Assembly: GCA_963702005.1 (NCBI GenBank)
Contig: OY969696.1
Span: 3,040,001 to 3,104,000, forward strand
Direction of reading: 5' to 3'
DNA from: Candidatus Aminicenantes bacterium
Lineage (GTDB): Bacteria > Acidobacteriota > Aminicenantia > Aminicenantales > JAFGBC01
Length of the DNA: 64,000 nt
Shown here in pieces: positions 34,657 through 64,000 of the stretch (position 1 is the first letter of the stretch; each line of letters begins with the position of its first letter). The notes beneath the pieces were generated by a model that was not told where the DNA came from, made no database searches, and saw nothing but the letters and a program-made list of their open reading frames with translations. The translations under genes were made by a program, and so were the position numbers.

Positions 34657-34725
34657 CCACTGTGTCACTTTTGTGTCACCTATTTGCATTATTCCATACA
34701 AACAATGCAAACGGCGGGAACAGTA
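34657..34725. repeat. Integrase att-arm-like segment, copy 1
   Basis: 67/69 identical to 50840-50908; contains tandem TGTGTCAC x2. Confidence 0.85.
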
Positions 34726-42636: not shown

Positions 42637-42644
42637 GACCGATA

Positions 42645-44612: not shown

Positions 44613-44708
44613 TATATCCCCCAACCATATAACCTTACTTTGAATTTTTAGCATGAAATTGAAAATAAATCAATCATTGTTCAAACTTCTAATAATATGA
44701 TCATTTTA

Positions 44709-45936
44709 AGGACCTCATCCCTTAAAAATGGTCCGGACATAATGTGAGTTTTCTGGCAAAATCTCTGGGAGGAGGTTTTGCCGATGAAGAAGTCGAAGTT
44801 CACGGAGGAGCAGATCGCGTTTGCGCTCCGCCAAGCCGAGACTGGGACACCGGTGGCAGAAGTTTGCCGGAAGATGGGGATCTCGGAGATGACGTTTTTC
44901 CGGTGGAAGAAGAAGTACGGAGGCCTCGGAGTTTCGGAGCTCCGTCGCTTGAGGCAGCTCGAGGAGGAAAACCGCCGGCTCAAGCGCATGGTGGCGGATC
45001 TGAGCCTCGAAAAACAGATGCTCTAGGATGTGCTCTCAAAAAAATTCTAAAGCCAGCTCAGAGGCGGGAGCGAGTGGTTGCTCTCGAGGAGGCCTATTGG
45101 GTGAGCGAACGGCGGGCCTGCCGGGTCTTCGGGTTCTGCCGTTGACAGCCGTACGTCCCACCGGTATCGCTCGCACCGCAGAGACGACCGGGCCCTGCGG
45201 CAGCGGATCGTCGAGATCGCGGAGACGCGCGTTCGGTACGGGTATCGGCGGGTCCATGTTCTGCTTCGGCGCGAGGGCTGGCGCGTCAATCACAAGCGGA
45301 CCTATCGGATCTACTGCCAGGAGGGGCTTAATCTAAGAAGGAAACGCCCTCGTCGTCATGTCTCCGGAAGCCGGCGGATGGAACGGCCGGAGGTCGAGCG
45401 TCCGAACGCCTGCTGGAGCATGGATTTTGTCGTCGACAGCTTCTTTAACGGCCACCGATTCCGGGCCTTAACGATAGTCGATAATTATAGTCGGGAGTGT
45501 CTGGCCATCGAAGCCGGCCAAAGCATGACGGGCGCGGAAGTCGCGGCTGTCATCGAGCGGCTGGTGAAGGAGCGGGGCGCTCCGGACCGCATCCAATGCG
45601 ACAACGGCAGCGAATTTATCTCAAGAGCCTTGGACAAGTGGGCGTATGAAAACGGGGTCATGATGGACTTCTCAAGGCCCGGTAAGCCTATGGATAACGC
45701 GATGATCGAGTCGTTCAACGGTTCATTCCGGGACGAATGCTTGAACGTCAATTGGTTCTTGTCGATGGAGGATGCCCGGGAGAAGATAGAGAAGTGGCGA
45801 ATGGATTACAATGAGTTCCGGCCGCACAGTTCGCTCGGAGACTTGACGCCGAGGCAATTCGTTGATACATACAAGAGAAGCTTAAAAAGCCAAAAAACTC
45901 CATTTTTGGCTGGACCAGTTCTGGGGTGCGGCTCCC
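44709..45936 (+). mobile_element. IS3-family element, defective copy 2
   Basis: Same IRL as copy 1; orfA MKKSKFTEEQI with premature TAG at 45024; A7 slippery site; same 10-bp insertion in orfB at 45143; IRR about 45907-45936. Confidence 0.93.
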
Positions 45937-46199
45937 TGGGTCGGGCACTGGTCCGCGGGAGACGCCTTCGATTCGTCGCTTTCCCCGGACGAGGAACTCT
46001 TCGGCCCGGACGCCTTCGAGGGGGAGGCATACTGTGCCCATGCGCACGCGTGGCCCCTCTACTGCTACTACCGGCTGCGTGAAGCGCGCTGACGGCGGTC
46101 GGCCTGCGAGGCCCGTCTCGCGGGCACGGTGGGAGGCCGTCACCGTCGAGACCGGTCTCCGGGCTTGCATATCGCGTGTTGTCGCGGATTACGTGTGCG

Positions 46200-50456: not shown

Positions 50457-50738
50457 TCAGGCGACGCCGAGACGCGCGAGCCGCGTCTCGAGGTCGGCAC
50501 GCAGCCGTTCTTCCGCGTCGCGGCGGACTATCGACGTGCGCCCCTCGTAGCCACCCTCGTCGAGCATCGCGGCCGTCGGCAGATACTCGATCGACCCGCC
50601 GGTGAGGCTTACGGTTACGAGGTCGAGCTTCGGGTGGGCTGCACGCAAGGCCGCCGTCGTTTCGTACGGGATCTCCGTGTGCATGAAGGCGAGCGTCGCC
50701 CCCCCACCAAGGGCCAGCACGGCGAGGGGCAGCTCCAC
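50457..50738 (-). pseudogene. C-terminal fragment of a hypothetical (ceramidase-like) protein truncated by an IS end
   Basis: YLPTAAMLDEGGYE motif; very GC-rich; coding signal begins exactly at the IS terminus at 50739. Confidence 0.55.
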
Positions 50739-50790
50739 TGACCTGCCCCCATTCAATGTACCACCTCTAAAGTGAGATTTTCAAGCATTG
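50739..50790 (-). mobile_element. IS3-family right-end fragment
   Basis: TGACCTGCCCCCATTCAATGTACCACC, similar to 34494 and 41766. Confidence 0.7.
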
Positions 50791-50839
50791 AGGTGCTCCC
50801 GTCTCATGCAGAAGCCCATGCTTCATAGGGCTGCTTTTT

Positions 50840-51091
50840 CCACTGTGTCACTTTTGTGTCACCTATTTGCATTATTCCATGCAAACAATACAAACGGCGG
50901 GAACAGTACGAACCGCCCCGTTTCTACGTAAGTCGCTAATTCTTCAGTAAGTAGCTGACAATACCGGGCTTAGTCGAAAAAGCCCATTTTTCTTCCTGGA
51001 GGATTTTAAGTCCCTCCTCGGGAAGCCGGAAACCGTTTAAAAAGAGGCGTTTTCAGTTGACGGCCTCCGGCCAGGGACGATTCAGGGACGA
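50840..51091. other. att junction: TGTGTCAC arm, tRNA-Leu(TAA) anticodon-like core (51001-51015), CAGGGACGA arm
   Basis: Minus-strand AGGGACTTAAAATCC; tandem arm-type repeats on both sides; abuts the integrase 3' end. Confidence 0.7.
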
Positions 51092-52111
51092 AGCGGAGTC
51101 GTAGTTCAGCAGCTCGATTTCGTGCGCCATGAAATCCGGCGCAAGATGGGCGTAGCGGAGCGTCATGCTGATGGTTGAATGCCCGAGAATCCGCTGGAGC
51201 GAGATGATGTTGCCGCCCTTGGCGACGAAGTTGCTGGCAAATGTGTGCCTGAGATCGTGAAACCGGATTTTTCGTAATCCCGCGCTTTCAGCCGCTTTCC
51301 TCATCTCCGACCTGAAGTCGATGGTATGCATGCGTCCCTTTTCGTCGGGGAACACGTGCTCGCTATCGCCACACTTCAGGCATTCGCGAAGGATGGGAAG
51401 CAGCCGGGAATTGATGGGCACGTATCTCAGGCGCTTGCTCTTCGTTGAGCCGCTGCCGCTCCTTTCAACCCGAATCATCCTCCTTTCGAGGTCCACGTCT
51501 ATCCGTCTGAGGCCGACGATTTCGCCGACTCTCATGCCGGTATAGACAGCAGTGCTGGCGATGGGCAGGAAGTCGGGCGGACAATTGCGAAGGAAAAGCG
51601 CTACCTCATCCTCGCTGTAGTAGTCGAATCCCTTCTGGGGCTCGCGGAGCTGCTGGACCTGCTTCATCGGGCTGGCCGACAGGAATCCCCACCTGACCGC
51701 GTCGTTGAACATCTTGCGGAGAATCGCGAGCGTCCTGTTGATGGTCGCGGGCCGAATCAACAGCTCCCTGCTCTTCTTGTACTCGTCGACCATGCGCGGC
51801 GTGATGTAGCTGGCTTCCCTGTCGCCGAAATACGGAATCAGGTGCTTCGCAAGCCGCTCCCCGTTCTTCCGGTACTGGGACGGAGCATTGGAGACTTTCG
51901 AATAGTTTTCGAGCCAGTACCGGGCAAGCTGCCCGAAGGTCATCTTCCTTTTGACCGGGATGTCGAACCGGTCGTGAAAGATGTCCGCCTCAAACTTCCG
52001 GAGGGCTTCCATCGCTTCCCTCTTGGACCTCCCTACCATTCTCTTGTGCCTCTCGCCTCTGATAACGAAATTGACGTACCACTTTCCGTTATGCCTGAAA
52101 ATGGTAGCCAT
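51053..52111 (-). CDS. int: Tyrosine recombinase/integrase
   Basis: TGMRVGE, TKSK, FHDLRHTFAS and LGHST..MT.RYAHL motifs. Confidence 0.96.
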   Translation of the reverse strand: MATIFRHNGKWYVNFVIRGERHKRMVGRSKREAMEALRKFEADIFHDRFDIPVKRKMTFGQLARYWLENYSKVSNAPSQYRKNGERLAKHLIPYFGDREASYITPRMVDEYKKSRELLIRPATINRTLAILRKMFNDAVRWGFLSASPMKQVQQLREPQKGFDYYSEDEVALFLRNCPPDFLPIASTAVYTGMRVGEIVGLRRIDVDLERRMIRVERSGSGSTKSKRLRYVPINSRLLPILRECLKCGDSEHVFPDEKGRMHTIDFRSEMRKAAESAGLRKIRFHDLRHTFASNFVAKGGNIISLQRILGHSTISMTLRYAHLAPDFMAHEIELLNYDSASSLNRPWPEAVN

Positions 52112-52114
52112 TTG

Positions 52115-52336
52115 CTATTTGAGGAGAGAGTCATCGCCTCTTATTATATCAAACGAGCTGGCCTTGAGCCATTCGTCGAGGCGTGACTTTGAGAAGCGGA
52201 GGAACCTGCCGATCTTGACGTAGGGAATCCTGCCGAAGTGGACCCATTCGTAAAGCCGCTGGCGCTTAATCTTCAGGAGAGCGCAAACTTCCTCGGGCGT
52301 CAGCAGTTCCGCGAATTCGACTCTCTCGCCTTTCAT
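52115..52336 (-). CDS. Excisionase-like helix-turn-helix protein
   Basis: LLTPEEVCALLKI...LYEWV...IPYVKIGRFLRF; directly upstream of int. Confidence 0.88.
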   Translation of the reverse strand: MKGERVEFAELLTPEEVCALLKIKRQRLYEWVHFGRIPYVKIGRFLRFSKSRLDEWLKASSFDIIRGDDSLLK

Positions 52337-52400: not shown

Positions 52401-52658
52401 TTACTCTGTTTTGTTCCTGTCCATCCTCGCGCCGATCTTCCCCGGCGAGACGGTGGACAAGACCACATGTCCTTCATCCATAACGATGACGCTTCTCATC
52501 GGCTTCCCGCAGGTAGCGTCTATAAGGAGGCCCTTTTCCCTGGCCTCCCTGACCATCCTCTTTATCGGGGCGGATTTCGGGTCCGCCACCGCAACGATCC
52601 TCCGGACGGCAACCAGGTTCTCATAGCCCACGTTGACCGAGTTTCCGGTTTCTTTCAT
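52401..52658 (-). CDS. remA: DUF370 / RemA-family regulator
   Basis: NVGYENLV...RIVAV..PKSAPIKRMV..AREKGLLIDATCGK.MRSVIVMD..HVVLS signature. Confidence 0.88.
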   Translation of the reverse strand: MKETGNSVNVGYENLVAVRRIVAVADPKSAPIKRMVREAREKGLLIDATCGKPMRSVIVMDEGHVVLSTVSPGKIGARMDRNKTE

Positions 52659-52842
52659 GGCTTCTCCCTTGTCCTCATTTGGGAGGGCCAGGTTATTCTT
52701 TTCTCTTTTTGTTTTAATTCGATTTTATTCAAAATGAACCGATTTTCCCCGGTTTGAACGGATATCAAACCTGAGCTAATTCTAGCTTTCTTATTCTTAC
52801 AGCGATTTGCTTTTGCGAGTCGCTGGTCATAAGCTCGAATCG

Positions 52843-52902
52843 TCGAGCTGTCATCCCCATAGGGATAAAAAAACATGCTATTTGAGCGGGTTTTAATCAC
52901 TG
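52843..52902. repeat. ~60-bp intergenic repeat, copy 1
   Basis: TCGAGCTGTCATCCCCATAGGGATAAAAAAACATGC...AATCACTG; similar to 53657-53716. Confidence 0.8.
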
Positions 52903-53468
52903 GTTTTTCCTGAGTTTTCCAGTGCCTTGCCTTGTTTCGTCTTGCTGAAGGAGTCGCGGTAACTCGTGATGCCTGCCTCCTGGCATTCCATGATTATCTG
53001 GCTCATGCGGAGCTCTTTGAGGCGCGAGTCCCTGGCGTCCATGAGCAAGGCCATTTCTACGTCGCGGACGCGGCCTCCCTTCTGGGCGCACACCGTCTCC
53101 CTGGCCTCTTGATGCGCTTCGATTTCGTTTCGCAAAGAATCGAAGGATTCAGCGCTCGGCAGGGCGATATTGATGAGCGACGGCGACCCTTCCCTTGCCT
53201 CAGGCCGCGTCGCGTCGTTCTGCTTGCTTTTCTTCTTCGCATTCCTTTTTGCCTCCCTGATGATTTTGCCGAGGCAAGGATTGCAGAGGCGGAAGCTCCT
53301 GCGCCATAAGTTATCCTGGAAGCGGAAGCATAGGTGCTTTATGCCCTTGGGTATGGGAGCGCCGCATGATCTGCACTTGGCCTCCCTCTTTGCGGCCTCC
53401 ACGTAGCGCATGTATTCATTGGGAGGCAAGGTCTGCCTCCAGCTCTCGTTGAACCGATTTTCCGTCAT
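52893..53468 (-). CDS. Hypothetical protein with PARP-type zinc-finger-like motif
   Basis: YVEAAK..AKCRSCGAPIPKG...LCNPC; RBS AAGGAGGT before MTENRF. Confidence 0.6.
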   Translation of the reverse strand: MTENRFNESWRQTLPPNEYMRYVEAAKREAKCRSCGAPIPKGIKHLCFRFQDNLWRRSFRLCNPCLGKIIREAKRNAKKKSKQNDATRPEAREGSPSLINIALPSAESFDSLRNEIEAHQEARETVCAQKGGRVRDVEMALLMDARDSRLKELRMSQIIMECQEAGITSYRDSFSKTKQGKALENSGKTSD

Positions 53469-53656
53469 ATCGAATACCTCCTTCTTGTCGGCCCTGTGCC
53501 TGCGGAGGCTTATCTTCTTTCTCATGCTCGCTTCCCTCGGCTGGAGCCGCGAGCGGAAGCCGAAAAGAAGAATATGCCGCCGCGGCATGCTGTCCGAACT
53601 GAGGAGGTATGACGGCAGGTCGTTCGGCGCAAAGAATCTGGAGGCATGCCAGGCCT

Positions 53657-53716
53657 TCGAGTTGTCATCCCCACAGGGATAAAAAAACACGCGGCTTAAG
53701 CTGATTTCAATCACTG
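53657..53716. repeat. ~60-bp intergenic repeat, copy 2
   Basis: TCGAGTTGTCATCCCCACAGGGATAAAAAAACACGC...AATCACTG. Confidence 0.8.
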
Positions 53717-54048
53717 TTGTCTGCCTTGGCCTGGAATCTTTTTAAGGTTGTGATGGTGTGGAAGCCTTTGTAATCCTCCAGGTTGTCTTTTAGCGAGCTT
53801 ATGTAGGCTTCCTTGTCATTGAGCTCTGCTTGCAGGGAGTCTCTTCCCTCCCTGATTTCCCTGATGTATCTGTCGCGCACTTCGAGCGAGCTGCGCAGGA
53901 TAGCCACGTCCTTCCTGAGCTCGTCCTCGATGTTCGGGTATGGCGGAGCGAGCGAGGGGACAAAGGCGCTGGATAGCTCGATCGTGCGGACGCTGCAGCC
54001 CTCGGCTGGCGCTTCTCTTAAATCCATGTTCGAGCGGTAGCCGTTCAT
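53707..54048 (-). CDS. Hypothetical coiled-coil protein
   Basis: RBS GGAGGTG; heptad-like C-terminal half. Confidence 0.6.
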   Translation of the reverse strand: MNGYRSNMDLREAPAEGCSVRTIELSSAFVPSLAPPYPNIEDELRKDVAILRSSLEVRDRYIREIREGRDSLQAELNDKEAYISSLKDNLEDYKGFHTITTLKRFQAKADNSD

Positions 54049-54069
54049 AGTTTCACCTCCCTATGGCTT

Positions 54070-54300
54070 TCATGGACCATAGCAATCACTCCTGTCGAGC
54101 CCGTGGTCCCTGCAATACAACTGCAGGGTTTCGTAGGCATACGCAGCCGCGGTCTCGCTGCCGAACCCGTTTTTCTCGTCCAGCAGGAAGCAGAGCCGCC
54201 ACAGCGTCCTGGAGACGCTAGGCTTTTTGCTGAAGAAGAGCGTAAGCTCATGCCAGAGCCCATAGCTCTTGCGCTTTCTCACGCGGTCTTCCCAGCTCAT
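54070..54300 (-). CDS. Hypothetical protein
   Basis: RBS AAGGAGG; ATGA overlap with the upstream gene. Confidence 0.55.
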   Translation of the reverse strand: MSWEDRVRKRKSYGLWHELTLFFSKKPSVSRTLWRLCFLLDEKNGFGSETAAAYAYETLQLYCRDHGLDRSDCYGP

Positions 54301-54545
54301 ACTCTCGCCTCCTTGTTCACATAGGGGATATCGCATCTTGTTATCTCCCATACGAAGGGAGCCAGCGACATTATTTCGCGCTCGGAGAAGTATCCCCATT
54401 CGGGGCATGTGCCAATGACGAAGCCGAAGAAGTAGCCAGGCTCGACCTCCTCGACGGCGAACCAGTACCAGCCGCTGAAGGATTCCCAGGCCCTGATGAT
54501 GGGTTTGCCATTGATTTTCCCGTCGGCGATTATCACTGTGGGCAT
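54297..54545 (-). CDS. DUF2958-like protein
   Basis: WYWFAVE...FFGFVIG..PEWGYFS.REI signature typical of mobile elements. Confidence 0.7.
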   Translation of the reverse strand: MPTVIIADGKINGKPIIRAWESFSGWYWFAVEEVEPGYFFGFVIGTCPEWGYFSEREIMSLAPFVWEITRCDIPYVNKEARV

Positions 54546-54554
54546 AGCATCACC

Positions 54555-54800
54555 TCACGCTCCGCTGCTTTCCTCAAGGATTTCTTCGCCATGAAGTATC
54601 TGGACCGTCGGTATCTTACGGCCCTCTTTCCAGTCAACGGTCAGATGAATCGCCAGCTTCTTGTCTTTGCGAGGACCCCAGAATACGGCTACGGCGATTT
54701 GCTTATTACCCCTGCAGGTAAATTGTTTTTGCCGAGTGTCGCTAATGCCTTTGAGGAATAATCTATCCTGGATGTCGCTTCGGGTTGTCATCTTGGACAC
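54555..54800 (-). CDS. Hypothetical protein
   Basis: RBS GGGGAG before GTG; co-oriented in the cluster. Confidence 0.5.
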   Translation of the reverse strand: MSKMTTRSDIQDRLFLKGISDTRQKQFTCRGNKQIAVAVFWGPRKDKKLAIHLTVDWKEGRKIPTVQILHGEEILEESSGA

Positions 54801-55117
54801 CTCCCCTTTTTAAATCGCTCAAGCGAGCCGTCGAGCTGCCTTTGCTTGCACTGCGCGAGCAAGTGAACTAAATTCACGTCTTTCGCTTGCATAGCACTCA
54901 CCTCCAGCGGAATGTTGGCGCTGCGAGTTAATCTGCCGCGCTTCGCTCTGAAGGCGTTAGGCAGAATTATCTTGCCAGCCAGAAATGTAGCTGGGGTGAG
55001 TGTGCCCTGGCGGAAGACGCATGGCCGTTCACTTGCTGACCAGAGCAAAGGGCATGTCATGCTGGCCTCTCGGAGCTCCATGGCTTGAGGTGGAGGAGAT
55101 CGTCAAGGACTGCGATT

Positions 55118-55630
55118 TTAGCTTTCATATTCATAGGCATCTTCATGGTTCTGTGCCGACTTTTCATCATCTTCATCTTCGAAGCCGTCGTCCTGCCAGC
55201 AGGATTCATCTTGATCGCCGGCGCGGGATTTTGCCTCAAGCTCGTCGGCCAGCCGCGCAAGCTCGGCTTGTTCCGCTTCCATCTCGCGCCAGACCTCCTC
55301 CCTGTGGCGCTTCTCCTCCTGCAGACGGGCGAAGGTCTCGGGATCGAAGTTCTCCGGGTGATCGTCCCAGGTGTCGTCAAAGTAGCCGCGAGATTCCAGG
55401 TCCTTGAATTTGTACCAGCAGCGGCGGAAACCTTCGTCTTTCGGATGCCAGACCGCAAAGCGCTCGCATTTGAGGCAGTCGATGTACGGGACTTCCCTGT
55501 CTTGCTCTGGGCAGAGGACTGGCGGCCCAACGACGGTCAAGCCAGAGTAGCGCCTTCCGGGGAGCGGCGGCAGTACCACGCGCCTCGGCATGCCCACTCG
55601 GTTGAACATTCGGCTTTGAGGGATTCTCAC
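55118..55630 (-). CDS. Hypothetical protein with Cys motif and acidic tail
   Basis: CP...DCLKCERF...RRC; very D/E-rich C-terminus; GTGA overlap with the ATPase. Confidence 0.65.
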   Translation of the reverse strand: MRIPQSRMFNRVGMPRRVVLPPLPGRRYSGLTVVGPPVLCPEQDREVPYIDCLKCERFAVWHPKDEGFRRCWYKFKDLESRGYFDDTWDDHPENFDPETFARLQEEKRHREEVWREMEAEQAELARLADELEAKSRAGDQDESCWQDDGFEDEDDEKSAQNHEDAYEYES

Positions 55631-57654
55631 AGGAGCTCTCTCACCAGGCTGAATTTCACTCTTGAAAGCTTCTCCCAGGGGACCGCCTTGTAGACCGCGT
55701 CCTTGGCCTCGTTCTGGGAGGCCTGGTTCTTCGTGACTATGACGACCTCGCTGAATCCGGCTTCAAGATCGCGCAACGCGTTTTCCGCGACGTGCGGATT
55801 AGCGGGTTCGAGCTCTATCTCGTAGGCGACCGCGCCTTCGGGTCGAATCTCCGCGACGTCTACGGCCTTGCCGTTGGCTTCATGCTCTATCGCCACGGTC
55901 TTTCCTGCTTTTTTCAGCGCTTCGGCAAGGAGGTTCTGCAGGATCACGTGCTCGGTCGAGCCCCTCCCGCGCAGGCGCACTTTTTCGTAATCTACGCCGA
56001 CGAATCGAGCGCCTTCTGGCCCGAGGACGGCATAAGTCTTCGGATTGCCGCGCTGGCCGAGTGAGAGCTGGCAGAGCTCTATGAGGCCCTGGCGCGCCAT
56101 TCCGTCCGCGATCTTCCGGGCCAGCCAGGGCGAGACGTTCCCCATGCGCGCATAGAGCTCGGAGAGCGTCATCTTTCCGGCCTCAACGAGCAGTTTCGCT
56201 ATGCCGGTCCAGATCCTATTGGGCTTCTGTCCAGTTGGCCTGCACTTCTCCCAGGGAAGAGGCTTTGCGTTGGCTTCGTTTGACAGGCTTGCCTCCTCTC
56301 CTAGCGGTGCATAATCAAGCGAAGCAAGAACCTCTTCAGAATGGCGTTCTGCATCCTTGTCCGAAACCTGCTCGAAGCTCAGCATAGGGATCTCGAAGAG
56401 AACGGGCTCGGGATAATCGGCCGACTGGAATACGCACTGGCGCTTTGGAATTACCGGCAAGAAGGCGGCCTGCTCCTGCATAAGGCTCAAGCCCTGCGCC
56501 ATGCGCCAGCCGCATTTGCCGTTTACGAGCCGCATGACGAAGCGGTTGTTGACGTTCGCAAGGAGCGGATTCGGAAGCTCGCTCGGCACCTGGTCGGAAT
56601 AGATGAAGCCGACGCCCCGCTTCCGGAACGTGCGGGCGCTTCCGAATATCATGCCTTCGCCCAGGTCATAGCGTTCCGAAAGGCGCTCGTTGAAGAGCTT
56701 ATGCGCCTCCTCGATGACGACAAGCATGCGGAGGCCGGAAAAAGCAAAGCGCTCCATATGGCTCGAAAGACGGAGAAGCTTGAGATAGATGTAAAAGTTG
56801 CGGATGTCATCGCTCACGCCGCCAGTCCTGAAGACGACGGTCTTGCTGGCGAGCGCGTCCAGGTCATAGCCCCGCCTGCACACGAGCGTTTTTTCCAGGT
56901 TGGCGGCCAGGCTCCGGAAGCGGTTTACCAGCGTTTCATGGAATCCAGAAAAACGGGTGCCGGGCTTGAATTCAATGCGATCCAGCGTCGCGACCAGATC
57001 CGTAATAGTGGGGTAGTTAATCCCGCCGTCGAGGACGCCGTTATTCGCGTAAAGCCCCCGGAGAATTCCGTCAAGCAGGTTAATCGAACCGTCGCGGAAG
57101 AAAAAGACCTCGCGGCAGAGGTTCTTTAGCCTGCCTAGCCATTCACTAGGGGCGATACCTGGCGGCGGCTGGAGGAAGTTGTCCCTGTCCAACGCTGGCG
57201 TCAAGACGAGGAAACGCGCCGGGTCGACGTGCCTGAGCAGGACCTTGTACTCGTTTTCGGGGTCAAATATCCAGGCGTGAATGCCTGCAGCGGCCAGCAG
57301 GGAAACGAGATAACGAATTAGATACGATTTTCCGCTTCCGCTGTGGCCGACTACGAGCGTGTGTTCGCCAAAAGAGCCGAATGGAATTATGAGCTTCCTG
57401 ACCTTCTTTTCTCCCAGAATAATGTCGCCCGGCGAGATCCCGTCCCCGGTTATCTTCCCGGACCCTAGGCCAAAGACCGGGAGGTCATATAGGGCCAGGC
57501 CTTGTTTTTTCAGTTCCCTCAGAAAGTGCCTTTTATAAAGCGGGATTTTGTCTGGATTCCGCGCGGCGCTCTCAAGGCATTTGATGATATCCGGCTTCTC
57601 GATGCCGATCATTCCGGCGATGGATTTGAGCTCTTCAAACCAATAGTCAGTCAT
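55627..57654 (-). CDS. HerA/VirB4/VirD4-like P-loop ATPase with C-terminal wHTH and PD-(D/E)xK-like domain
   Basis: HTLVVGHSGSGKS, VIEEAH, RKRGVG...DQVPS motifs; C-terminal EH...VDV...AYEIE. Confidence 0.8.
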   Translation of the reverse strand: MTDYWFEELKSIAGMIGIEKPDIIKCLESAARNPDKIPLYKRHFLRELKKQGLALYDLPVFGLGSGKITGDGISPGDIILGEKKVRKLIIPFGSFGEHTLVVGHSGSGKSYLIRYLVSLLAAAGIHAWIFDPENEYKVLLRHVDPARFLVLTPALDRDNFLQPPPGIAPSEWLGRLKNLCREVFFFRDGSINLLDGILRGLYANNGVLDGGINYPTITDLVATLDRIEFKPGTRFSGFHETLVNRFRSLAANLEKTLVCRRGYDLDALASKTVVFRTGGVSDDIRNFYIYLKLLRLSSHMERFAFSGLRMLVVIEEAHKLFNERLSERYDLGEGMIFGSARTFRKRGVGFIYSDQVPSELPNPLLANVNNRFVMRLVNGKCGWRMAQGLSLMQEQAAFLPVIPKRQCVFQSADYPEPVLFEIPMLSFEQVSDKDAERHSEEVLASLDYAPLGEEASLSNEANAKPLPWEKCRPTGQKPNRIWTGIAKLLVEAGKMTLSELYARMGNVSPWLARKIADGMARQGLIELCQLSLGQRGNPKTYAVLGPEGARFVGVDYEKVRLRGRGSTEHVILQNLLAEALKKAGKTVAIEHEANGKAVDVAEIRPEGAVAYEIELEPANPHVAENALRDLEAGFSEVVIVTKNQASQNEAKDAVYKAVPWEKLSRVKFSLVRELL

Positions 57655-57896
57655 TCCTTTGGAGACACCTTGTTAAGGAATCCGATTATTGCGGGCGCGA
57701 TTACGGCGGCTCCGATGACGACGAACATTAGAAGGATCGAGCCGCCCACTCCGCCGTATTTCGCGAGCGAAATGCCGAAGGCAAGCCCGATACCTGCGCC
57801 GACCGCAAGGCTGAAAACGGCGCGGGCATGCCTGGCCAGGAACCGGAAAAGCCCGGCGAGGAGCGCAATCACGATCTCGATAAAGGCGTACATCAG
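57651..57896 (-). CDS. Small membrane protein (2-3 TM)
   Basis: Hydrophobic Gly-rich helices; overlaps both neighbours; start approximate. Confidence 0.65.
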   Translation of the reverse strand: MMYAFIEIVIALLAGLFRFLARHARAVFSLAVGAGIGLAFGISLAKYGGVGGSILLMFVVIGAAVIAPAIIGFLNKVSPKE

Positions 57897-58270
57897 CTTT
57901 TCCTCCGCAGCGAAGCGCGGACCATCCCCGGCAGGCCGCACGTGCGGCATACTCGAACGCCAGGCTTGAGGATGCTTTCAGCGCTGCAGCCAGGGCAACA
58001 GATTCTTCCGCACGAAGAGCAAGCAAATTTGCCGGATTTCGCGTCGGCCTCGCATATCGTTGCCGTGCCGCACACGTGGCAGATAGCGCCCGTCGCTCCG
58101 ACATGGCCGCAATCGTTAAGGCCTTTTTCGACTTCGGTCGTCCGGTGAATCGTCCCTTCCGCGTCCACGCCTTCGACGTGCACTGTCCTCGCGACTTCGC
58201 CGGTCTCGGAGACGCGCCTGCCGATTCTTTCTATGGTAGTTTTGATTTCGTCCGGAGCATTCTTTCCCAT
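57893..58270 (-). CDS. Cys-rich zinc-finger protein
   Basis: CGH, CHVC, CSSC, CPGC and CRTC motifs; RBS AAGGAGG. Confidence 0.7.
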   Translation of the reverse strand: MGKNAPDEIKTTIERIGRRVSETGEVARTVHVEGVDAEGTIHRTTEVEKGLNDCGHVGATGAICHVCGTATICEADAKSGKFACSSCGRICCPGCSAESILKPGVRVCRTCGLPGMVRASLRRKS

Positions 58271-58295
58271 GCCTGCCTCCTTTCCGGCGCTGTTC

Positions 58296-59429
58296 CTAGC
58301 GCCAGAAGCCGCCGCCCGCGTCCTCAATTGCCCTGATCCCGAAACGCCTGGCCGCCTCCCTGGCCTCTTCTATTTCCGATGGGGACACCAGCCGGTTGAG
58401 GCCAGGATCGGTTTTCGTCTTCCAGTCCGGGACAAAATTGTCTATGACGCTGAGCCATATTTTTTCCCTGTATGCGCTCAGCTTTTCCAGGCCTGGCTTG
58501 TGGCAGCATTCCACGTGTCCGGGAAGGATGAGCATCCTGACGATTGCCTTTGCTTCTTGGCTGCATATTTGCCTCATGCCTTCCTCCGCGACCTCGACGT
58601 AATTTCCCGCGCCAGACAGCCTCCTAGCGCATGAGCTGTTGCCGTACTTGAAATCGGTCAGCCATACATCGACGACGCCGTCGAGCAGTTTGTAAAGGAC
58701 CGGGCTCGCATAGCCGTTGTCGTTCATCACGACGGGGAGCCGGAACGAGAGCGGAGCGGCGTTGAGGGCTTCGAGGATCGCGCAGGCCGACTCGTCAGGG
58801 TTCCCTCCGCCAAACTCCAGCGAAGCTGCTCTTGAAAAATATATGTCTGAAGCGAGCACTGCCCAGAGTCCGGAATCCAGTCTCCTTATTGGCTTCGGAG
58901 CGTAGCTTTCCCTGGCCTGGCAGAAAACGCAGTTCAGGGCGCAACCCACAAGCCTAACGGTAGCGCTTGGCGTGATGACGGCCTCTTCCGCGATGTGGAC
59001 GAAAGGCTCGTCGTAGTGAGCGTCTGGCCCGAGGCCGCAGCGACCCTTTCCCTCGAACCTGTTAGCTCCGCAATTCCTGCCGCACAGGCCGCAACGCTCA
59101 AGCTCCCTTCTGGCCAGCTCGATTTTCAGGTCGAAAAGGCTAAGGCCTCTCCCGTCGTCTGGTCCCTCCCCGCCTTCTCTGATCGCGCCGTCATGCAAAT
59201 CCCACAACTTGGAAGCATCGAAATCCTGTATCGTTTCTGGATCAGTGGCCTGAACGGAAACGCGCCTGGCCCTCTGGAAAGAGGGCACGAAATCCAAAGG
59301 AGGAGGAATGGACTGAATGCTGAAATCAGGCTGGAGCCTCGTTATGACCGGAAGGCAGTCGAAGCTCGGATCGACCATGAACAGCCTTCCGTCCTGCGTC
59401 AGGCTGCACTTGATTTTTCTGCCAGCCAT
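58296..59429 (-). CDS. PflX-like radical SAM protein with N-terminal extension
   Basis: CGLCGRNCGANR...CG, GCALNCVFCQ, DVWLTDFKYGN..CA..LSG..NY and RMLILPGHVECC motifs. Confidence 0.88.
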   Translation of the reverse strand: MAGRKIKCSLTQDGRLFMVDPSFDCLPVITRLQPDFSIQSIPPPLDFVPSFQRARRVSVQATDPETIQDFDASKLWDLHDGAIREGGEGPDDGRGLSLFDLKIELARRELERCGLCGRNCGANRFEGKGRCGLGPDAHYDEPFVHIAEEAVITPSATVRLVGCALNCVFCQARESYAPKPIRRLDSGLWAVLASDIYFSRAASLEFGGGNPDESACAILEALNAAPLSFRLPVVMNDNGYASPVLYKLLDGVVDVWLTDFKYGNSSCARRLSGAGNYVEVAEEGMRQICSQEAKAIVRMLILPGHVECCHKPGLEKLSAYREKIWLSVIDNFVPDWKTKTDPGLNRLVSPSEIEEAREAARRFGIRAIEDAGGGFWR

Positions 59430-59430
59430 T

Positions 59431-59919
59431 TCAGTGCGCGCTCTTGCTCCGGACTGCCTTCGCTTCTCTTTCGTGCTTTCCCTTGTCAAACAAGCGAGAA
59501 ATAGTGTCGAATTCGGTCGAAGTCGGGGGCAGGGCTTTCCGCTCCTCGAAGCTCGCTCCGAGCATCCCTTCGAAATTTCCCCTCGGCGCTAGCAGGAGAT
59601 TGACGGCCGGTCCGGGAAGCGAGCTGTACCCTTCCTGTTCCATCTCGAAGCCGGTCTTCTCTGCGGCTTCCCCGAGAAGACAGAGAGTCGCAGCCTGCTC
59701 AATGCTGAGGTTTCTCTGGAGCTCCCGGATGATTTCGCCCTGGAAAAGCTTGCCGGTGATTTCCGCAAATCCGATTGAAACGGGCTCAAAGGCCATGCCC
59801 AATTCGGGAGCCGAATGATCGAAAGCGACCCCTTCGAGCTCAAGCCGCCTGACTGCGGCTCCCAGGCCTCTGAGGAATTGGTCCATGTTGCGGACCGGAA
59901 GAGCAATGCTTCTTGACAT
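59431..59919 (-). CDS. Hypothetical protein
   Basis: RBS GGGAGG; 1-bp gaps to both neighbours. Confidence 0.65.
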   Translation of the reverse strand: MSRSIALPVRNMDQFLRGLGAAVRRLELEGVAFDHSAPELGMAFEPVSIGFAEITGKLFQGEIIRELQRNLSIEQAATLCLLGEAAEKTGFEMEQEGYSSLPGPAVNLLLAPRGNFEGMLGASFEERKALPPTSTEFDTISRLFDKGKHEREAKAVRSKSAH

Positions 59920-59920
59920 G

Positions 59921-61414
59921 TCAGTCTACCTCCCTCGTCACGGAATATTTTTTAAGGCGTGCGCCCGCCTTTTCGAAGAAACCCTTCCAGAAAGCCTTCA
60001 GCGCCGCCCAATAGGACGGCGACTTGTTGTTCGTCAGCACTCCAAGCACGAAAACGTCGACGTTCCTTAGCGGCGGGATCATGCCTCGCTTCTCCGCCAC
60101 TGCTAGCAGATCAGAGACGTTCAACCGTTCGGGACTCTCCAGGTCGAGCTCCTTCGTCGCTTGCCGCATGTCCGAAAAGACGATCAGCCGCTTTTCCTGC
60201 GCGCTCCCGTCCTCAAGGAAAATTTGCGCGATTGCGAGCGCTCCGATGACGTCGGAATTCGTGAATACGGGGTTGAGGTCCCTGGCTCTCGCCCGCCATT
60301 CGCTAACGAGCGAGGCCCTTTCCTCTTTCAGCCTTTCCTTGAAGTAACCCGGTTTCAAGCCGGTCCTTCCGCTGAGCAGTATCGCTGGCTTGCCGAAGCT
60401 TCTGTCGGTAACGGCCAGGACCGCAATTTTCTCGCCTGGCCCGGCTGCGTTCAGGCAGGCCTCAACGGCTTTCGCGTTCTTTACGCATTCGTCCTGGCCA
60501 ACGGACTTCGTGAGGTCAACGATGATGACCGTATTTTTGCCAAGCTCCTCGCCGAAGGCGCGGCCTGCTGCGAGCGAAAGCAGGATGGCAAGAATGATTA
60601 TTATGGGAAGAGCAATCGCCCACTTCTTCTCGCCTGACAATTTGTTCGTAGTCGCCTGCCGCGCCCAGATGGCGAATTCTGCGCCGATGATCTTCGGCCT
60701 GTTCCTGCGCACGTTAATCTCCCTGTCCCTCGCAATCATGTTCCGTATTTCCCGCTGCTTTCTTCTGTGCGCCCTGACTTCCGGCGAATAAAGCCACTCG
60801 ACCACGCGAAAAAGCGTAAGGCCCGCTGCGAGCTCGACTCCGAGCGCCAGCATGGGGAGCGCGATGGTGAGAAGCCTCGAAGTCGTCTGATAGAAGGATT
60901 CGGAGGCCGTTCCCAGGGTCCGAAAAAGCTGGCCTCGGACGATGCCGAGCTGGACATGCGCGATCAGAAGGCTCAGCAGGGCGACGCCGGAAAGGCTCAC
61001 GAGGACCCATTTTTTCGCGTAATACGCGGTAAGGAAGCCGTCCATCATCAGGCAGGTCGCCAGGATGATGCCGAGCGAGGCGAAGTGCGCCTTGATGCCG
61101 ATCTCGTAGGGCTCGAAGGTCAGGAACATGAGCGCATAGCTTGCGAGGACCAGAAAGACAAAAAGGAAGATGCCGAATCTTGCCCTGACAACCGCGTGTT
61201 CAAGAACCCATTCGGGCTTGGCTTTTATCCTGTTCAGCCAGGCATCAATCATCGCTACTGCGTCCTGCGATTTGCGGCCATCGACTTGCGCTTCCCTGAT
61301 GCGCGGCTCTTCTTCGAGCTCTATCTTCCTTTCGAGCTCTGCGCGGAGCTTCTGAACGTTTTTCCCGCTTACTTTTTTTGATCCAAGGATGTCAGTCCAA
61401 GGATGTTTTATCAT
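59921..61414 (-). CDS. Multi-TM membrane protein with C-terminal VWA-like domain
   Basis: About 5 TM helices; IIVDLTKS, NSDVIGAL and LIVFSDM (MIDAS-like) motifs; RBS AGGAG; ATGA overlap. Confidence 0.72.
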   Translation of the reverse strand: MIKHPWTDILGSKKVSGKNVQKLRAELERKIELEEEPRIREAQVDGRKSQDAVAMIDAWLNRIKAKPEWVLEHAVVRARFGIFLFVFLVLASYALMFLTFEPYEIGIKAHFASLGIILATCLMMDGFLTAYYAKKWVLVSLSGVALLSLLIAHVQLGIVRGQLFRTLGTASESFYQTTSRLLTIALPMLALGVELAAGLTLFRVVEWLYSPEVRAHRRKQREIRNMIARDREINVRRNRPKIIGAEFAIWARQATTNKLSGEKKWAIALPIIIILAILLSLAAGRAFGEELGKNTVIIVDLTKSVGQDECVKNAKAVEACLNAAGPGEKIAVLAVTDRSFGKPAILLSGRTGLKPGYFKERLKEERASLVSEWRARARDLNPVFTNSDVIGALAIAQIFLEDGSAQEKRLIVFSDMRQATKELDLESPERLNVSDLLAVAEKRGMIPPLRNVDVFVLGVLTNNKSPSYWAALKAFWKGFFEKAGARLKKYSVTREVD

Positions 61415-61680
61415 CCGCTCCTCCTTTCGCTCGGCCTCGCTGATTGCGCACATTTCTCGCATATTTGACCAGAGGTTTTGTACTTGTCGGTTATACGCTC
61501 CATGCAGATGTAGCAGCGCTCCCGCTGGCACAGGAGGCATGTTCGAAGGCACTTGTGGCAGAAGACGCTATTACACAGCAAACAGAAACCGAAATGTTCG
61601 AGCGTGTAAGGAAGCGAGCGCATGCAGCCTGGGCATGTTTGCATGAGCACGATTTCAGGGAGCTCAGCGGGTTGAGGCAT
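61411..61680 (-). CDS. Cys-rich zinc-finger protein
   Basis: Six CxxC pairs in about 89 aa. Confidence 0.65.
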   Translation of the reverse strand: MPQPAELPEIVLMQTCPGCMRSLPYTLEHFGFCLLCNSVFCHKCLRTCLLCQRERCYICMERITDKYKTSGQICEKCAQSARPSERRSG

Positions 61681-61849
61681 TTGCGAGCGCCTTTTCGGTT
61701 TCGGCGATCTTTTCGCTTTCTGAGAAAACCGACTCATCTTCGCACTCCATATCCAGGCTTCTCGCCAAGGCAATCATTCGGCTAAAAGCCATATCTCTCC
61801 ATACCTCGCATCTAAGCTTTGCTTCGATGGCCACTAACGAACCGTTCAT
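61664..61849 (-). CDS. Small hypothetical protein
   Basis: RBS GAGGAG; first gene of the leftward operon. Confidence 0.5.
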   Translation of the reverse strand: MNGSLVAIEAKLRCEVWRDMAFSRMIALARSLDMECEDESVFSESEKIAETEKALANASTR

Positions 61850-61966
61850 GTCAATCTCCTCTGTTTGAAAGTGAACCATATGCGGCTTGTCTATTGGTAT
61901 CGGAGAAACCTCGGATTTCTGAGAGGTTTCTGAAAAGGATTTAAAGACTACCGAGAAGTAATAATC

Positions 61967-62617
61967 ATGGCTTATATCGAAGCGAGGAAATACGGAATAA
62001 GCGGAGTCTTTATAGACGGATATATGCCTGTTTTTTCTGAACTAAGAAAGGTCGACTGGGACCGTGCGCTTGAACAGACGTTCTATAAATTTCCTTGGAG
62101 ACGTGACCAATTTAGCAAGATTAGAAAACACCTTGAACCAGGCTCAAGAGATTATGGTCCTTTTGTAAGGTCGGCAATATATGCAAAATTAATCGACAAT
62201 GTCAGGCTAGGCTTCTGTCAATATACAAGCAGGCCAAAATGGCCGTGCGATCACTGGTTCCATCCTTCCAAAGGACTAATGGGCATCAAATATTGTTTTT
62301 CTGCCAATTTGAACATGAATCCAGACGAGGTTGATGCTATATTCCATGCTGATGCGGAAACTGAAAGGGCGAAGGGAAAAGGAGAATATGCCTGCAATCT
62401 AATCGTAATCGACCGACGCCCCGACACTGGCTGTCGGGTTTTTAAGGAATGCAACTATCATTGGATGGAGTCTCTTAAGTTCGAGCCAAAAAGAAAAAAG
62501 GACCATTCCAACTTTAGAAATGTAAAAAAACTAGCTATGCAACTTCTAATTGAATCAATGATAATGATGGATAGCGAATATTTCGAAGATCATCGGTTAC
62601 GTGATTATTTCAGGTAA
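61967..62617 (+). CDS. Hypothetical protein
   Basis: 216-aa AT-rich ORF divergent from the operon. Confidence 0.55.
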   Translation: MAYIEARKYGISGVFIDGYMPVFSELRKVDWDRALEQTFYKFPWRRDQFSKIRKHLEPGSRDYGPFVRSAIYAKLIDNVRLGFCQYTSRPKWPCDHWFHPSKGLMGIKYCFSANLNMNPDEVDAIFHADAETERAKGKGEYACNLIVIDRRPDTGCRVFKECNYHWMESLKFEPKRKKDHSNFRNVKKLAMQLLIESMIMMDSEYFEDHRLRDYFR

Positions 62618-63499
62618 TTCTTCAATTAAACAATACTTCACATTATCGGGCAAAAATAATCTATATCCACTCCATCTTACAGTAACAATGAATTTTTTTA
62701 TTTCGGGACAGTGTTTAATAAGAGCAGACTTACATTGTTGGACATCATTGGTTCTCTCAAATTCCCATCTATTCCATTCCTCTAGATCCGTTTCCGCAGC
62801 ATTGTGCATAGCTTCGTATAATTTCCTATACGACACGTTATTCCCGATATTCTTTATTAGGCACGTCAAAAGTCTTCTTTCCTCAGGAAACATTTTTTGG
62901 GGAGTATTTCTCTTTATTAAATATTCACCATTCTTTTCATCCAGCCAGATAAATAACTTAGATTTGTCGATTTCTTTCTGCTCACTATATTGAATCTCTG
63001 TAAGTGGCTTGCCTTTTTTTTTATCATGAGAATACATCACATACTTTTTCTCTTCTTCCTCTTCAATAACAGGAAATCTTCCAATATTTTTCAAATCCTC
63101 TTTTATCATGGGGACAGCAAGCCTGATGGTCTTCAGAATCAGCCCTTCAGGCAAAGACTTTCCATACTTGGTAATTGTCTCTTCTATATCAGCATCCTGA
63201 ACTTGGCCCTTGAACTCCGCAAGCCTAAGCCACACCAATGATATCAAAGCGATAACTTTCGGCGTTTGAAGCCCCGCTACATCCGCTTCATCTAGGAACT
63301 GCAATTCTTTCGCAAGCTTCGCTTTATATTCTCGCGCTTCCAGCAGCTCTGCCGGGGATTCTCCCCTTTCCGAGATTTCCTTCTTAATTATTTGCCAGAT
63401 GCTACCGAATAGCTCTTTCTCTTCCGGAAGGCACTCCTCTACGACCTTCTTGCTGAGAGAATAAACAGCAGAATTACCTGAGTTCGAGGCGTTCATTTC
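62597..63499 (-). CDS. Protein with C-terminal OmpR/PhoB-type winged helix
   Basis: ERRLLTCLIKN.GNNVSY..LYEAM...IVTVRWSGYRL. Confidence 0.68.
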   Translation of the reverse strand, partial: EMNASNSGNSAVYSLSKKVVEECLPEEKELFGSIWQIIKKEISERGESPAELLEAREYKAKLAKELQFLDEADVAGLQTPKVIALISLVWLRLAEFKGQVQDADIEETITKYGKSLPEGLILKTIRLAVPMIKEDLKNIGRFPVIEEEEEKKYVMYSHDKKKGKPLTEIQYSEQKEIDKSKLFIWLDEKNGEYLIKRNTPQKMFPEERRLLTCLIKNIGNNVSYRKLYEAMHNAAETDLEEWNRWEFERTNDVQQCKSALIKHCPEIKKFIVTVRWSGYRLFLPDNVKYCLIEELPEIIT

Positions 63500-64000
63500 A
63501 CAGGCTCTCAATCCTTTTTATTCTCTGCGCCAAAACCGGCTGCGAGTAGCCCAATAATATGTCCCCGAAGAAAAACTCGTCGGTCGCTAAGAGTTTATAA
63601 TAAAACTTGCTGATTTTCATCAACCTTGTTTTGCCATTCCGCCCTTTGAGCGCCTCCTTTCTCAAAGCTTGGTTCAACAAGATTGTTTTAATTAAAGCAT
63701 TCTTCAGCGCTTCTTTATCCTCCGTAGCCCGGACACAAAACCTGTCGGCCTCATATTCCATTGCTACAAAATCGAAAAGCGCAGTGAGAAAATAATTGGG
63801 CAGCAAGGATATGCGAGAAAGAATCTTTGCCAGGAACAGCTTCCTTAGCCCCTGCTTCACGTGGCCAAGCTCGTGAGTAACCAACGCCATTATCTCATTC
63901 GCATCGAGTTTTTCCAATGCCTCGTTGCTGAGGTAGATCTTAGGGGTTTTCGAAAATAGGCCGCATTTTACTGAAGACTCTATCAGGGTCGATTTCATGA
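63498..64000 (-). CDS. M48/M56 zinc metallopeptidase, C-terminal part (5' end outside window)
   Basis: PKIYLS...HELGH and EYEADR motifs. Confidence 0.85.
   Translation of the reverse strand, partial: MKSTLIESSVKCGLFSKTPKIYLSNEALEKLDANEIMALVTHELGHVKQGLRKLFLAKILSRISLLPNYFLTALFDFVAMEYEADRFCVRATEDKEALKNALIKTILLNQALRKEALKGRNGKTRLMKISKFYYKLLATDEFFFGDILLGYSQPVLAQRIKRIESL

Follow-up and report, generated by a model that had tools for sequence, protein, structure and literature searches.

An integrative-element family in Candidatus Aminicenantes with a HerA-like ATPase in its conserved backbone and a replaceable von Willebrand factor A/radical SAM cassette

The window analysed here, a stretch of 64,000 nucleotides (nt) from Candidatus Aminicenantes bacterium (GenBank assembly GCA_963702005.1, contig OY969696.1, positions 3,040,001 to 3,104,000 of the forward strand), carries an integrative element whose genes form a co-oriented array of 19 open reading frames (ORFs), running without a break on the minus strand from 61879 down to 51053 according to ORF calls and recomputed junctions. 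An earlier reading of the letters alone (the original prediction) had placed nine of these genes in an integrative element, and this placement is borne out by the presence of an integrase (int) and an excisionase-type (xis) gene in the same array; the string, however, does not end at 55118 but continues through ten more ORFs to the integrase gene at 51053. What is new at this locus is an integrative-element family that may be of the kind driven by a single pumping ATPase, and its genes are, in window coordinates and with protein lengths in amino acids (aa):

61664..61879, minus strand: p71, a 71-aa ORF heading the string; open frame only, a doubtful gene
61411..61680, minus strand: CxxC89, six CxxC pairs, backbone; start moved to M32 (homologues 85-96 aa)
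59921..61414, minus strand: TM-vWA, 497 aa, cassette, a transmembrane (TM) protein with a von Willebrand factor A (vWA) domain; the 497-aa form is present in the protein collection searched
59431..59919, minus strand: hyp162, cassette; 1 nt from each neighbour
58296..59429, minus strand: radical SAM enzyme, 377 aa, PflX- or glycyl-radical-activase-like, cassette
57893..58270, minus strand: Zn125, backbone; N-terminal part beta-rich, C-terminal part Cys/His-rich
57651..57893, minus strand: TM80, 80 aa, about three hydrophobic helices, backbone; overlaps the Zn125 stop and the ATPase start
55627..57654, minus strand: ATPase675, 675 aa, P-loop ATPase of the FtsK-HerA superfamily, backbone
55118..55630, minus strand: p170, backbone; CxxC..H..C motif, coiled region, acidic tail
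52655..55081, minus strand: block of small genes p97, p81, p82, p112, p113, p273 and p81b; subsets vary among relatives
52401..52658, minus strand: RemA-like (DUF370) DNA-binding protein, backbone (PF04025, 97.7 bits)
52115..52336, minus strand: excisionase-type HTH_17 protein (PF12728, 59.3 bits)
51053..52111, minus strand: tyrosine integrase (PF00589, 107 bits)

Start sites were set from homologue lengths before the junctions were recomputed, and library scans covered the proteins of the element and of its right flank, 20 of them with Pfam and 17 with NCBIfam, PHROGs and PADLOC. The tight coupling predicted for the first nine ORFs holds, all lying on the minus strand at distances of -17 to +25 nt, and eight of the nine are supported as genes: p71 overlaps CxxC89 by 17 nt and CxxC89 overlaps TM-vWA by 4 nt, single nucleotides separate TM-vWA from hyp162 and hyp162 from the radical SAM gene, 25 nt lie between the latter and Zn125, and overlaps of 1, 4 and 4 nt follow at Zn125/TM80, TM80/ATPase675 and ATPase675/p170, respectively. 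GGAGG-like ribosome-binding sites are found upstream of TM-vWA, hyp162, Zn125 and TM80, and a scan for promoters and terminators returned counts no different from those in shuffled sequence. Of the small first protein that had been proposed only the frame of p71 stands, as tblastn found no relative of it in 36 related loci, and p71 is perhaps no gene at all; in L022 its position is taken by an unrelated ORF of 82 aa. The six CxxC pairs of CxxC89 and the acidic, Cys-containing nature of p170 were both confirmed from the translations.

The 36 related loci were obtained by profile scans, two in species-representative genomes and 34 on metagenome contigs, with an ATPase identity of at least 34% in 33 of them, and gene order and presence were scored by tblastn with all element proteins. 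Gene-neighbourhood conservation, which had been proposed as a check, is evident, since the backbone order is kept in 33 metagenomic or MAG (metagenome-assembled genome) loci: the common arrangement is CxxC89, a gap of 1.1-3.4 kb, Zn125, TM80, ATPase675, p170, small genes, RemA-like gene, xis and int, and the core from CxxC89 to int measures 8-11 kb. Where a locus extends 1.1 kb or more upstream of the ATPase gene, Zn125 was found in 23 of 23 cases and TM80 in 21 of 23, the other two (L009, L010) having a hydrophobic ORF of ~78 aa in the same place. Likewise, p170 is present in all 31 loci that continue for 600 nt or more downstream of the ATPase gene, and of the 13 loci with 3.3 kb or more on that side, all have RemA-like and integrase genes and 12 have xis. 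As several loci are near-duplicates (L015/L016, L017/L018, L022/L023, L019/L020/L021/L033/L034), the independent lineages are fewer than the loci. A tRNA gene comes directly after the integrase gene in 10 of 19 scanned loci (six tRNA-Leu, four tRNA-Val), the other integrase loci ending first, and, judged from these positions, the tyrosine integrase of the family targets tRNA genes.

The source genome itself holds a second copy of the element at 89,457-95,618 (L048, 3457-9618), beside tRNA-Val(cac), with int, xis, RemA-like, p113-like, p170, ATPase, TM80 and Zn125 genes; no CxxC, TM-vWA, hyp162 or radical SAM gene was found in it. This copy is decayed, its ATPase gene being split into ORFs of 306 and 367 aa and its integrase ORF running into the tRNA gene. 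Among 401 sampled genomes of the phylum, three besides the source matched at E <= 1e-20, all of them distant. In one of these three, the genome G046, two elements encode a Cys-rich protein, a 125-aa multi-TM protein, an ATPase of 711-712 aa (23% identity), small proteins, Xis and Int, and the integrase genes adjoin tRNA-Ala or tRNA-Arg. One of these elements (L057, 8968-10416) has a gene for a tubulin/FtsZ-family GTPase after one for a small winged-helix protein, a TubZ/TubR-like arrangement, and the other (L058, 8177-9187) a ParB-like gene, both in the place of the small genes and the RemA-like gene; these partition-type genes suggest an episomal stage in the wider family. Soil and sediment metagenome contigs match the window from about 51.0 to 61.5 kb at 85-99% identity, cassette included. 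In the literature found on Aminicenantes, integrase and HerA, the element family is not described.

The gap between CxxC89 and Zn125 is a variable slot, whose contents were scored in the 17 loci showing both flanks. TM-vWA, an ORF of 177-201 aa in the position of hyp162 and the radical SAM gene fill it in three (L019, L020, L034), as they do in the window and, within contig reach, in L011. In six slots, a protein of the ThiF family that carries a TM segment at its C-terminus is accompanied by secreted or anchored small proteins; ThiF was confirmed by Pfam in L009 and L024, while L010, L013, L025 and L037 were assigned by similar ORFs. A radical-SAM-like ORF of a different type lies in L025 as well, and one related to it in L009. 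Seven more contain a pair of ORFs of 202-253 and 107-145 aa of no known family, and the slot of L012 contains DUF5131 and a TM ORF. Because slot contents differ in this way among loci, TM-vWA, hyp162 and the radical SAM protein are an interchangeable cassette and not the core of the module, and the view of the nine genes as one core module with an embedded radical SAM enzyme has to be given up, other cassettes occupying the slot in 14 of the 17 loci. The anatomy is thus very probably two-layered, with a conserved backbone (CxxC89, Zn125, TM80, ATPase675, p170, small genes, RemA-like gene, xis and int) and a replaceable cassette.

The view of the nine genes as a single obligate module was also rejected on these grounds: the trio is missing from the second copy, and in the distant relative L058 a full-length TM-vWA homologue (hhalign probability 100, E 2.9e-53) lies elsewhere, directly before xis, with no radical SAM match on the 12.8-kb contig end.

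In the cassette of the window, TM-vWA contains five hydrophobic segments, which are predicted TM helices, and its AlphaFold2 (AF2) model has a mean predicted local distance difference test score (pLDDT) of 76.6. In this model the C-terminal ~210 aa form a vWA fold, with Foldseek matches to Rpn10, TFIIH p44, vWF-A3 and integrin I domains (probability 1.0, template-modelling score to the target 0.55-0.65), and the MIDAS-type residues D300, S304, T336 and D388 (D-x-T-x-S, T, D) are invariant in 14 sequences, so that the multi-TM, VWA-like protein of the original prediction is confirmed; sequence models of Pfam gave no match on it. The protein collection holds 12 clusters of TM-vWA, and matches in the ESM Atlas are confined to Acidobacteriota clusters. 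Since an R/K-rich loop precedes the last TM helix, the sequence suggests that the vWA domain faces outward. Within the same gene, four copies of GATGCCGA occur in 236 nt (window 60941-61176), compared with about none in shuffled sequences; this cluster probably derives from repeated x-G-I codons, an array bound by a protein being also possible. For hyp162, Pfam, NCBIfam, PHROGs and PADLOC hold no family.

As to the radical SAM protein, the predicted PflX-like character is partly sustained: its CX3CX2C motif (C163, C167, C170) and a second, upstream cluster of the form CxxCxxxC..C (C113, C116, C120, C131) are invariant in 19 sequences, whereas its Pfam Radical_SAM (PF04055) score of 24.5 bits stays under the cut-off of 29.5, which the L019 orthologue exceeds with 42.1. 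The best NCBIfam matches are PFLE_PFLC, NrdG and PflA, and four of its 37 clusters in the collection are named 'putative pyruvate formate lyase activating enzyme'. It differs from the PflX branch in an N-terminal extension of ~100 aa, in scores far below the cut-offs of the glycyl-radical activase models (25.3 vs 174.35 for TIGR02494, 18.8 vs 231.75 for TIGR02493) and in its setting in a mobile-element cassette beside a vWA membrane protein; a Pfam scan of the neighbouring genes revealed no glycyl-radical enzyme. By sequence, it thus resembles PflX and glycyl-radical activases only weakly. In the libraries searched, the pairing of a radical SAM enzyme with an extracytoplasmic vWA protein has no described counterpart.

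Of the backbone proteins, ATPase675 and the integrase are the sole enzymes. For CxxC89, tblastn detected relatives with 31-54% identity in 17 loci, and the protein gives a weak match to a Siva-type Zn finger (E 0.008); nine Cys/His residues of Zn125 are invariant in 12 sequences; no family in Pfam, NCBIfam, PHROGs or PADLOC matches Zn125, CxxC89, TM80 or p170. The RemA-like protein occurs in 18 loci at 45-80% identity. Among the small genes, the L009 homologue of p82 gives a weak match to DUF2958 (E 0.018, under the cut-off). A direct repeat of 60 nt (83% identical; window 52843-52902 and 53657-53716) lies over the 5' ends of p81b and p273 and gives both products an N-terminal FFYPxGDD motif, which is also found in the second element copy.

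ATPase675 matches Pfam DUF87 (PF01935) with 35.6 bits at a cut-off of 23.2, and a profile of 28 homologues matches solved HerA chains at 1.3e-18 and 5.6e-16. In these 28 sequences G103, G108, K109 and S110 of the Walker A motif (GHSGSGKS) as well as E316 and H318 of Walker B (VVIEEAH) are invariant. The AF2 monomer model, built from the 28-sequence alignment, has a mean pLDDT of 84; Foldseek and VIA searches with the whole model effectively compared residues 56-439. Because the motor part (residues ~57-440) superposes on DndH-C, VirB4, HerA and TrwB (VIA Z 33.8, 31.8, 28.4 and 27.4, respectively), it is a member of the FtsK-HerA superfamily, while the fold as modelled cannot by itself place it in the transfer, repair or defence branch. 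The protein has no TM segment of its own. Behind the motor, a winged helix (~480-560) is indicated by HTH_24 or MarR_2 matches in 3 of 12 family members (best E 3.3e-6) and by matches of the C-terminal profile to the winged helix-turn-helix (HTH) of ROK/Mlc regulators in the Protein Data Bank (PDB). Residues 567-675 of the predicted model follow an alpha-beta-beta-beta-alpha-beta order (DSSP: helices 567-582 and 621-631; strands 586-589, 600-603, 608-613 and 636-641), with E590, K596, D599, E612, E614 and H621 invariant; they resemble the core of restriction-endonuclease-type folds, and from this secondary structure and the conserved acidic residues we infer a possible nuclease role. The 'ATPase-nuclease' of the original prediction therefore stands in its first half, the HerA-like ATPase with DUF87 above cut-off, its second half having no database match.

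With E <= 1e-5, 39 clusters of ATPase675 were found in a collection of 5.8 billion clusters, two of them named Candidatus Aminicenantes; with E <= 1e-30, the ATPase architecture, which is common in metagenomes, is represented by 589 clusters, most of the top 150 being full length. A single-sequence search of species-representative genome contigs detected no relative, whereas the profile search found two, and plasmid records contain 36 remote DUF87 matches, none spanning 80% of the query.

In the sequence comparisons made, no known integrative and conjugative element (ICE), phage, plasmid or defence system matches the element, in agreement with the original view of it as uncharacterised. Relaxases and further mating-pair families were absent from the proteins scanned with Pfam, NCBIfam, PHROGs and PADLOC. 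By analogy, the element would be in its working most like ICEth1 or the actinomycete integrative and conjugative elements (AICEs), as a member of neither. AICEs are about 10 kb in size, and their translocase TraB carries a DNA-recognising winged helix; the element resembles them in both respects. TraB moves double-strand DNA together with membrane Spd proteins, and AICEs of the pSAM2 type share with our element family an int and xis pair at a tRNA gene, a single FtsK-like translocase of double-strand DNA and, within one transcription unit, small membrane proteins (PMC12857230). The element ATPase differs in belonging to the HerA/VirB4/DndH branch, in having no TM segment and in its extra nuclease-like domain, and the element seems to be hosted by bacteria of the Acidobacteriota type instead of mycelial actinomycetes. 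An array of 8-bp repeats like the clt locus was not clearly identified, the repeats seen being the GATGCCGA cluster in the TM-vWA gene and a GTGACAC-N5-TGACAC pair after the integrase gene.

ICEth1 of Thermus thermophilus is a 14.9-kb element bounded by direct repeats whose membrane-located, hexameric, HerA-like TdtA is needed together with the NurA nuclease for DNA donation (PMC5365140). The likeness would lie in a small integrative element with a HerA/FtsK-type ATPase at the membrane and a nuclease or nuclease-like part, working without a type IV secretion system (T4SS). In contrast to ICEth1, the element has no NurA gene, a nuclease-like domain and a winged helix being fused to its ATPase, it has small TM and Zn-ribbon partners, and its backbone is without a restriction enzyme/methylase pair. 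TdtA and ATPase675 are likened here by description. We know of no MOB_C relaxase fused to a motor ATPase. These relaxases, such as TraX of pAD1 and MobC of CloDF13, belong to the restriction-endonuclease superfamily and are outlined as an HTH followed by a restriction-endonuclease-like domain, the domain order predicted for residues 480-675 of ATPase675, the architectures being compared by description only (PMC12857230).

Tentatively, we read the backbone as a T4SS-independent DNA-transfer motor like TraB or TdtA. ATPase675 would act as a hexameric pump for double-strand DNA that TM80 holds at the membrane; its winged helix would find the excised element, its C-terminal nuclease-like domain may cut it, and the motor would push the DNA out of the donor without a T4SS, as TraB does in actinomycete elements and TdtA/NurA in ICEth1. 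More speculatively, TM-vWA would expose to the outside a vWA domain for metal-dependent adhesion, and a partner, possibly hyp162 or the vWA protein, would be modified by the radical SAM enzyme, so that the cassette would set contact or exclusion specificity and not DNA movement. In favour of transfer, the ATPase core is similarly close to VirB4, TrwB and HerA, its Walker motifs are conserved, the start and stop codons of TM80 and ATPase675 overlap, and the backbone encodes no enzyme besides this ATPase and the integrase. A more detailed scheme, which we consider unlikely, would have T4SS-free minimal conjugation in double-membrane Acidobacteriota-type bacteria, with origin recognition (winged helix), cutting (restriction-endonuclease-like domain) and pumping (HerA ring) on one polypeptide, an 80-aa docking partner and envelope cassettes (vWA with radical SAM, ThiF with secreted proteins) deciding on mating or exclusion.

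A number of observations weigh against transfer. The models of known transfer motors fit ATPase675 poorly, as seen from FtsK_SpoIIIE (PF01580; 16.6 bits vs a cut-off of 24), the VirB4/TraC models NF045975 (32.9 vs 590) and TIGR02746 (15 vs 567), and the TraG model of Pfam and the TraD models of NCBIfam, all far under their cut-offs. Comparison of the C-terminal domain (567-675) as a sequence profile with the PDB and Pfam gives no solved nuclease or family, for which reason the word nuclease keeps its qualifier, and its motif is E-x-E where classic PD-(D/E)xK enzymes have E-x-K. No replication initiator or relaxase family was recognised among the element proteins in the library scans, and searches for tRNA genes, attachment (att) sites and repeats fixed no outer borders of the element in this genome. 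Neither transfer nor excision nor a circular form was seen, the best public run containing 0.14 of the sampled words; the search for an excised circle, suggested by the original prediction, yielded no joint between the two ends of the element in contigs from four sequencing runs, and no RNA run was among the matches listed. Finally, part of the evidence speaks for a conflict system carried on an island, in which the ATPase senses and degrades invading DNA, TM80 is its membrane effector or anchor and the cassettes are alternative sensors or effectors, as in the defence hotspots of other mobile elements. The best PADLOC matches of the ATPase are mad8 (2.8e-16) and eleven HerA/mad3 defence models, paralogous ATPase pairs reside in low-GC islands with Abi_C, NERD, DUF3800, kinase and TPR, and type IIG methylase genes, and a distant relative (L056) is flanked by genes for a type I restriction R subunit and a Schlafen/AlbA_2 protein.

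In line with a conflict function, the solved structures nearest to ATPase675 also include DndH-C and the Sir2-HerA and DUF4297-HerA complexes, and the NCBIfam model 'anti-phage-associated helicase HerA' was matched under its cut-off; with DndH and the anti-phage systems Sir2-HerA (Nezha) and DUF4297-HerA, the ATPase shares the fold (Z 25-34) and the logic of a motor combined with a nuclease, here a putative one. However, the partner effectors of these systems are absent here, NCBIfam equivalog scores are far under cut-off (e.g., 31.2 vs 850), and the module is fixed in a mobile-element backbone. Its order with the RemA-like, xis and int genes is kept down to an ATPase identity of 34% (23% in G046), and the persistence of this order while integrases and tRNA targets change suits a backbone better than cargo. 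In addition, neither a known HerA partner (Sir2, DUF4297, NurA) nor a further MADS component turned up, PADLOC detected no full gene set of a described anti-phage system among the 17 proteins scanned, the ATPase being the sole match and the other eight operon proteins having none, and relatives carry TubZ-like and ParB-like partition genes in the same string. We regard a conflict system as rather unlikely; if the ATPase should be a defence motor instead, a HerA protein fused to its own DNA-recognition and nuclease-like domains and coupled to a membrane partner would represent a new layout.

The PHROG matches bear on a further possibility, namely a capsid-less, membrane-enveloped virus or a vesicle-transferred plasmid akin to pleolipoviruses or plasmavirus L2, in which the ATPase would load a budding vesicle, TM80 would be the main membrane protein, the cassettes would bind receptors and the RemA-like protein would compact the DNA. 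Within the element only the ATPase matched PHROGs (phrog_7035 at 1.2e-14; phrog_2666, 'terminase large subunit', at 2.1e-9, Walker A region only). The 8-11 kb of the core from CxxC89 to int, the fact that the varying part, whatever the type of cassette, encodes membrane or secreted proteins, the predicted outward orientation of the vWA domain and the episomal stage suggested by the partition genes of relatives would all agree with such a life style. Nevertheless, there is no capsid, spike or other structural PHROG among the 17 proteins, 24 pattern matches in IMG/VR include 0 confirmed relatives, and 50,697 phage records hold two remote matches. Moreover, the packaging ATPases of membrane viruses are only about a third as large as ATPase675, whose structural likeness to DndH, VirB4 and HerA (Z 28-34) exceeds that to B204 of STIV (Z 17), and no direct repeat closes the 8-11-kb unit in any of the nine loci searched, so that this origin appears quite improbable. 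The original statement that the window lacks capsid, terminase and relaxase genes holds for the element and its right flank, from which 17 proteins were scanned, a narrower range than the whole window for which it was made.

The partition genes of relatives also bring into play a motor for maintenance, in which the ATPase would not export DNA but help the excised episome to initiate replication, resolve dimers or segregate, all else being as in the transfer reading. Pfam, NCBIfam and PHROGs recognised no other replication protein in the element, the modelled winged helix and nuclease-like architecture could nick an origin, and the TubZ or ParB genes make an episomal stage likely. On the other hand, strict coupling to a small membrane protein would be unexpected for a replication enzyme, and FtsK-HerA ATPases are known as pumps for double-strand DNA, not as replicative helicases; we consider this role very improbable. 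Taken together, the role of the backbone could not be decided among transfer, virus-like packaging and conflict, and the original proposal of a transfer or secretion module, a membrane-containing virus or a conflict system is partly supported.

To our knowledge, no route of movement has been described for most genomic islands, and we know of essentially no DNA transfer by a single FtsK/HerA-type pump outside actinomycetes and Thermus. The family thus adds a compact and well-conserved transfer candidate in a poorly studied, mostly uncultured phylum, in which the same backbone with different cassettes represents a built-in natural experiment.

With respect to the borders, the sequence at 51001..51016 is a 16-nt candidate attachment core; the same letters make up the anticodon arm of a hybrid pseudo-tRNA-Leu that lies 52 kb away (genome position 3143121-3143209). 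The 3' half of this pseudo-tRNA matches the tRNA-Leu found after the integrase genes of relatives, its 5' half is not tRNA-like, and we estimate the chance of a 16-mer match in the searched space at ~0.007; the match between the window and one related metagenome contig starts at precisely 51001. If both sites were att sites, the island would span 52 kb and take in a low-GC stretch with two further integrases, numerous defence-like genes and a paralogous ATPase whose partner has 270 aa. No convincing far-end att repeat of at least 11 nt was found in nine loci, none closing the 8-11-kb unit, and terminal overlaps indicating circular contigs were seen in 0 of 36 loci.

A 72-nt direct repeat (96% identical; window 50837-50908 and 34654-34725) contains GTGACAC-N5-TGACAC, which also occurs between int and the tRNA gene in L012, L016 and L022, and because it sits here beyond the 16-mer, its position points to a rearrangement. 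The two repeat copies bracket 16 kb with two IS3-type transposase genes, a tRNA-Arg gene and sugar-metabolism genes. Between the transposase genes (36495-37091 and 45378-46082) lies a stretch at 41884-44654 with a GC content of 0.39-0.45. Its products are an AEP-like protein of the primase type (PF24387) and a fusion of a patatin phospholipase with an inactive-HKD domain, and it looks like a separate defence-type insert. Next to the 72-nt repeat, a dispersed repeat of ~55 nt (50737-50795), with five more copies in the genome at 83-92% identity, is covered by metagenome contigs to a very high depth, at most 113, loose ends being seen on either side, and may be the end of an insertion sequence or a miniature element. 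No CRISPR arrays were detected in the genome by a search for k-mer spacing.

Just upstream of the operon, a divergent gene pair (61967-63511) encodes a 216-aa protein and one of 304 aa that matches Trans_reg_C weakly. As this pair is also found beside the CxxC gene in L022 (6124-7687) and L023, at 26-31% identity, the element may extend past 61.9 kb despite a drop in GC content. The flanking M48-type peptidase gene (63498-63998) matches phrog_2767, of unknown function.

To the right of the window, a low-GC island at genome position 3,101,967-3,143,210 (L045-L047) ends at the hybrid pseudo-tRNA-Leu(taa), a normal tRNA-Leu(taa) gene being located at 1,659,135. The island encodes DUF3800, an M48/M56-type peptidase, a PALP enzyme with a class-V aminotransferase, integrases of 207 and 419 aa and a kinase and TPR pair, as well as a phosphoribosyltransferase (PRTase), NYN, a Cdc6-like AAA protein with NERD, Abi_C, RadC, ParB with DUF6602 and a PAPS reductase, and a type IIG methylase. 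It also harbours a paralogous HerA-type ATPase of 677-681 aa, 24-26% identical to ATPase675 and paired with a protein of 220-270 aa that belongs to no family; this pair lies at 3,114,180-3,117,021 (L045, 13180-16021) and again at 132,441-136,059, the two copies being 76% identical. The same pair is found upstream of the element, on the other strand, in L009, L012, L013, L018, L024 and L037, and it may constitute a separate two-gene system.

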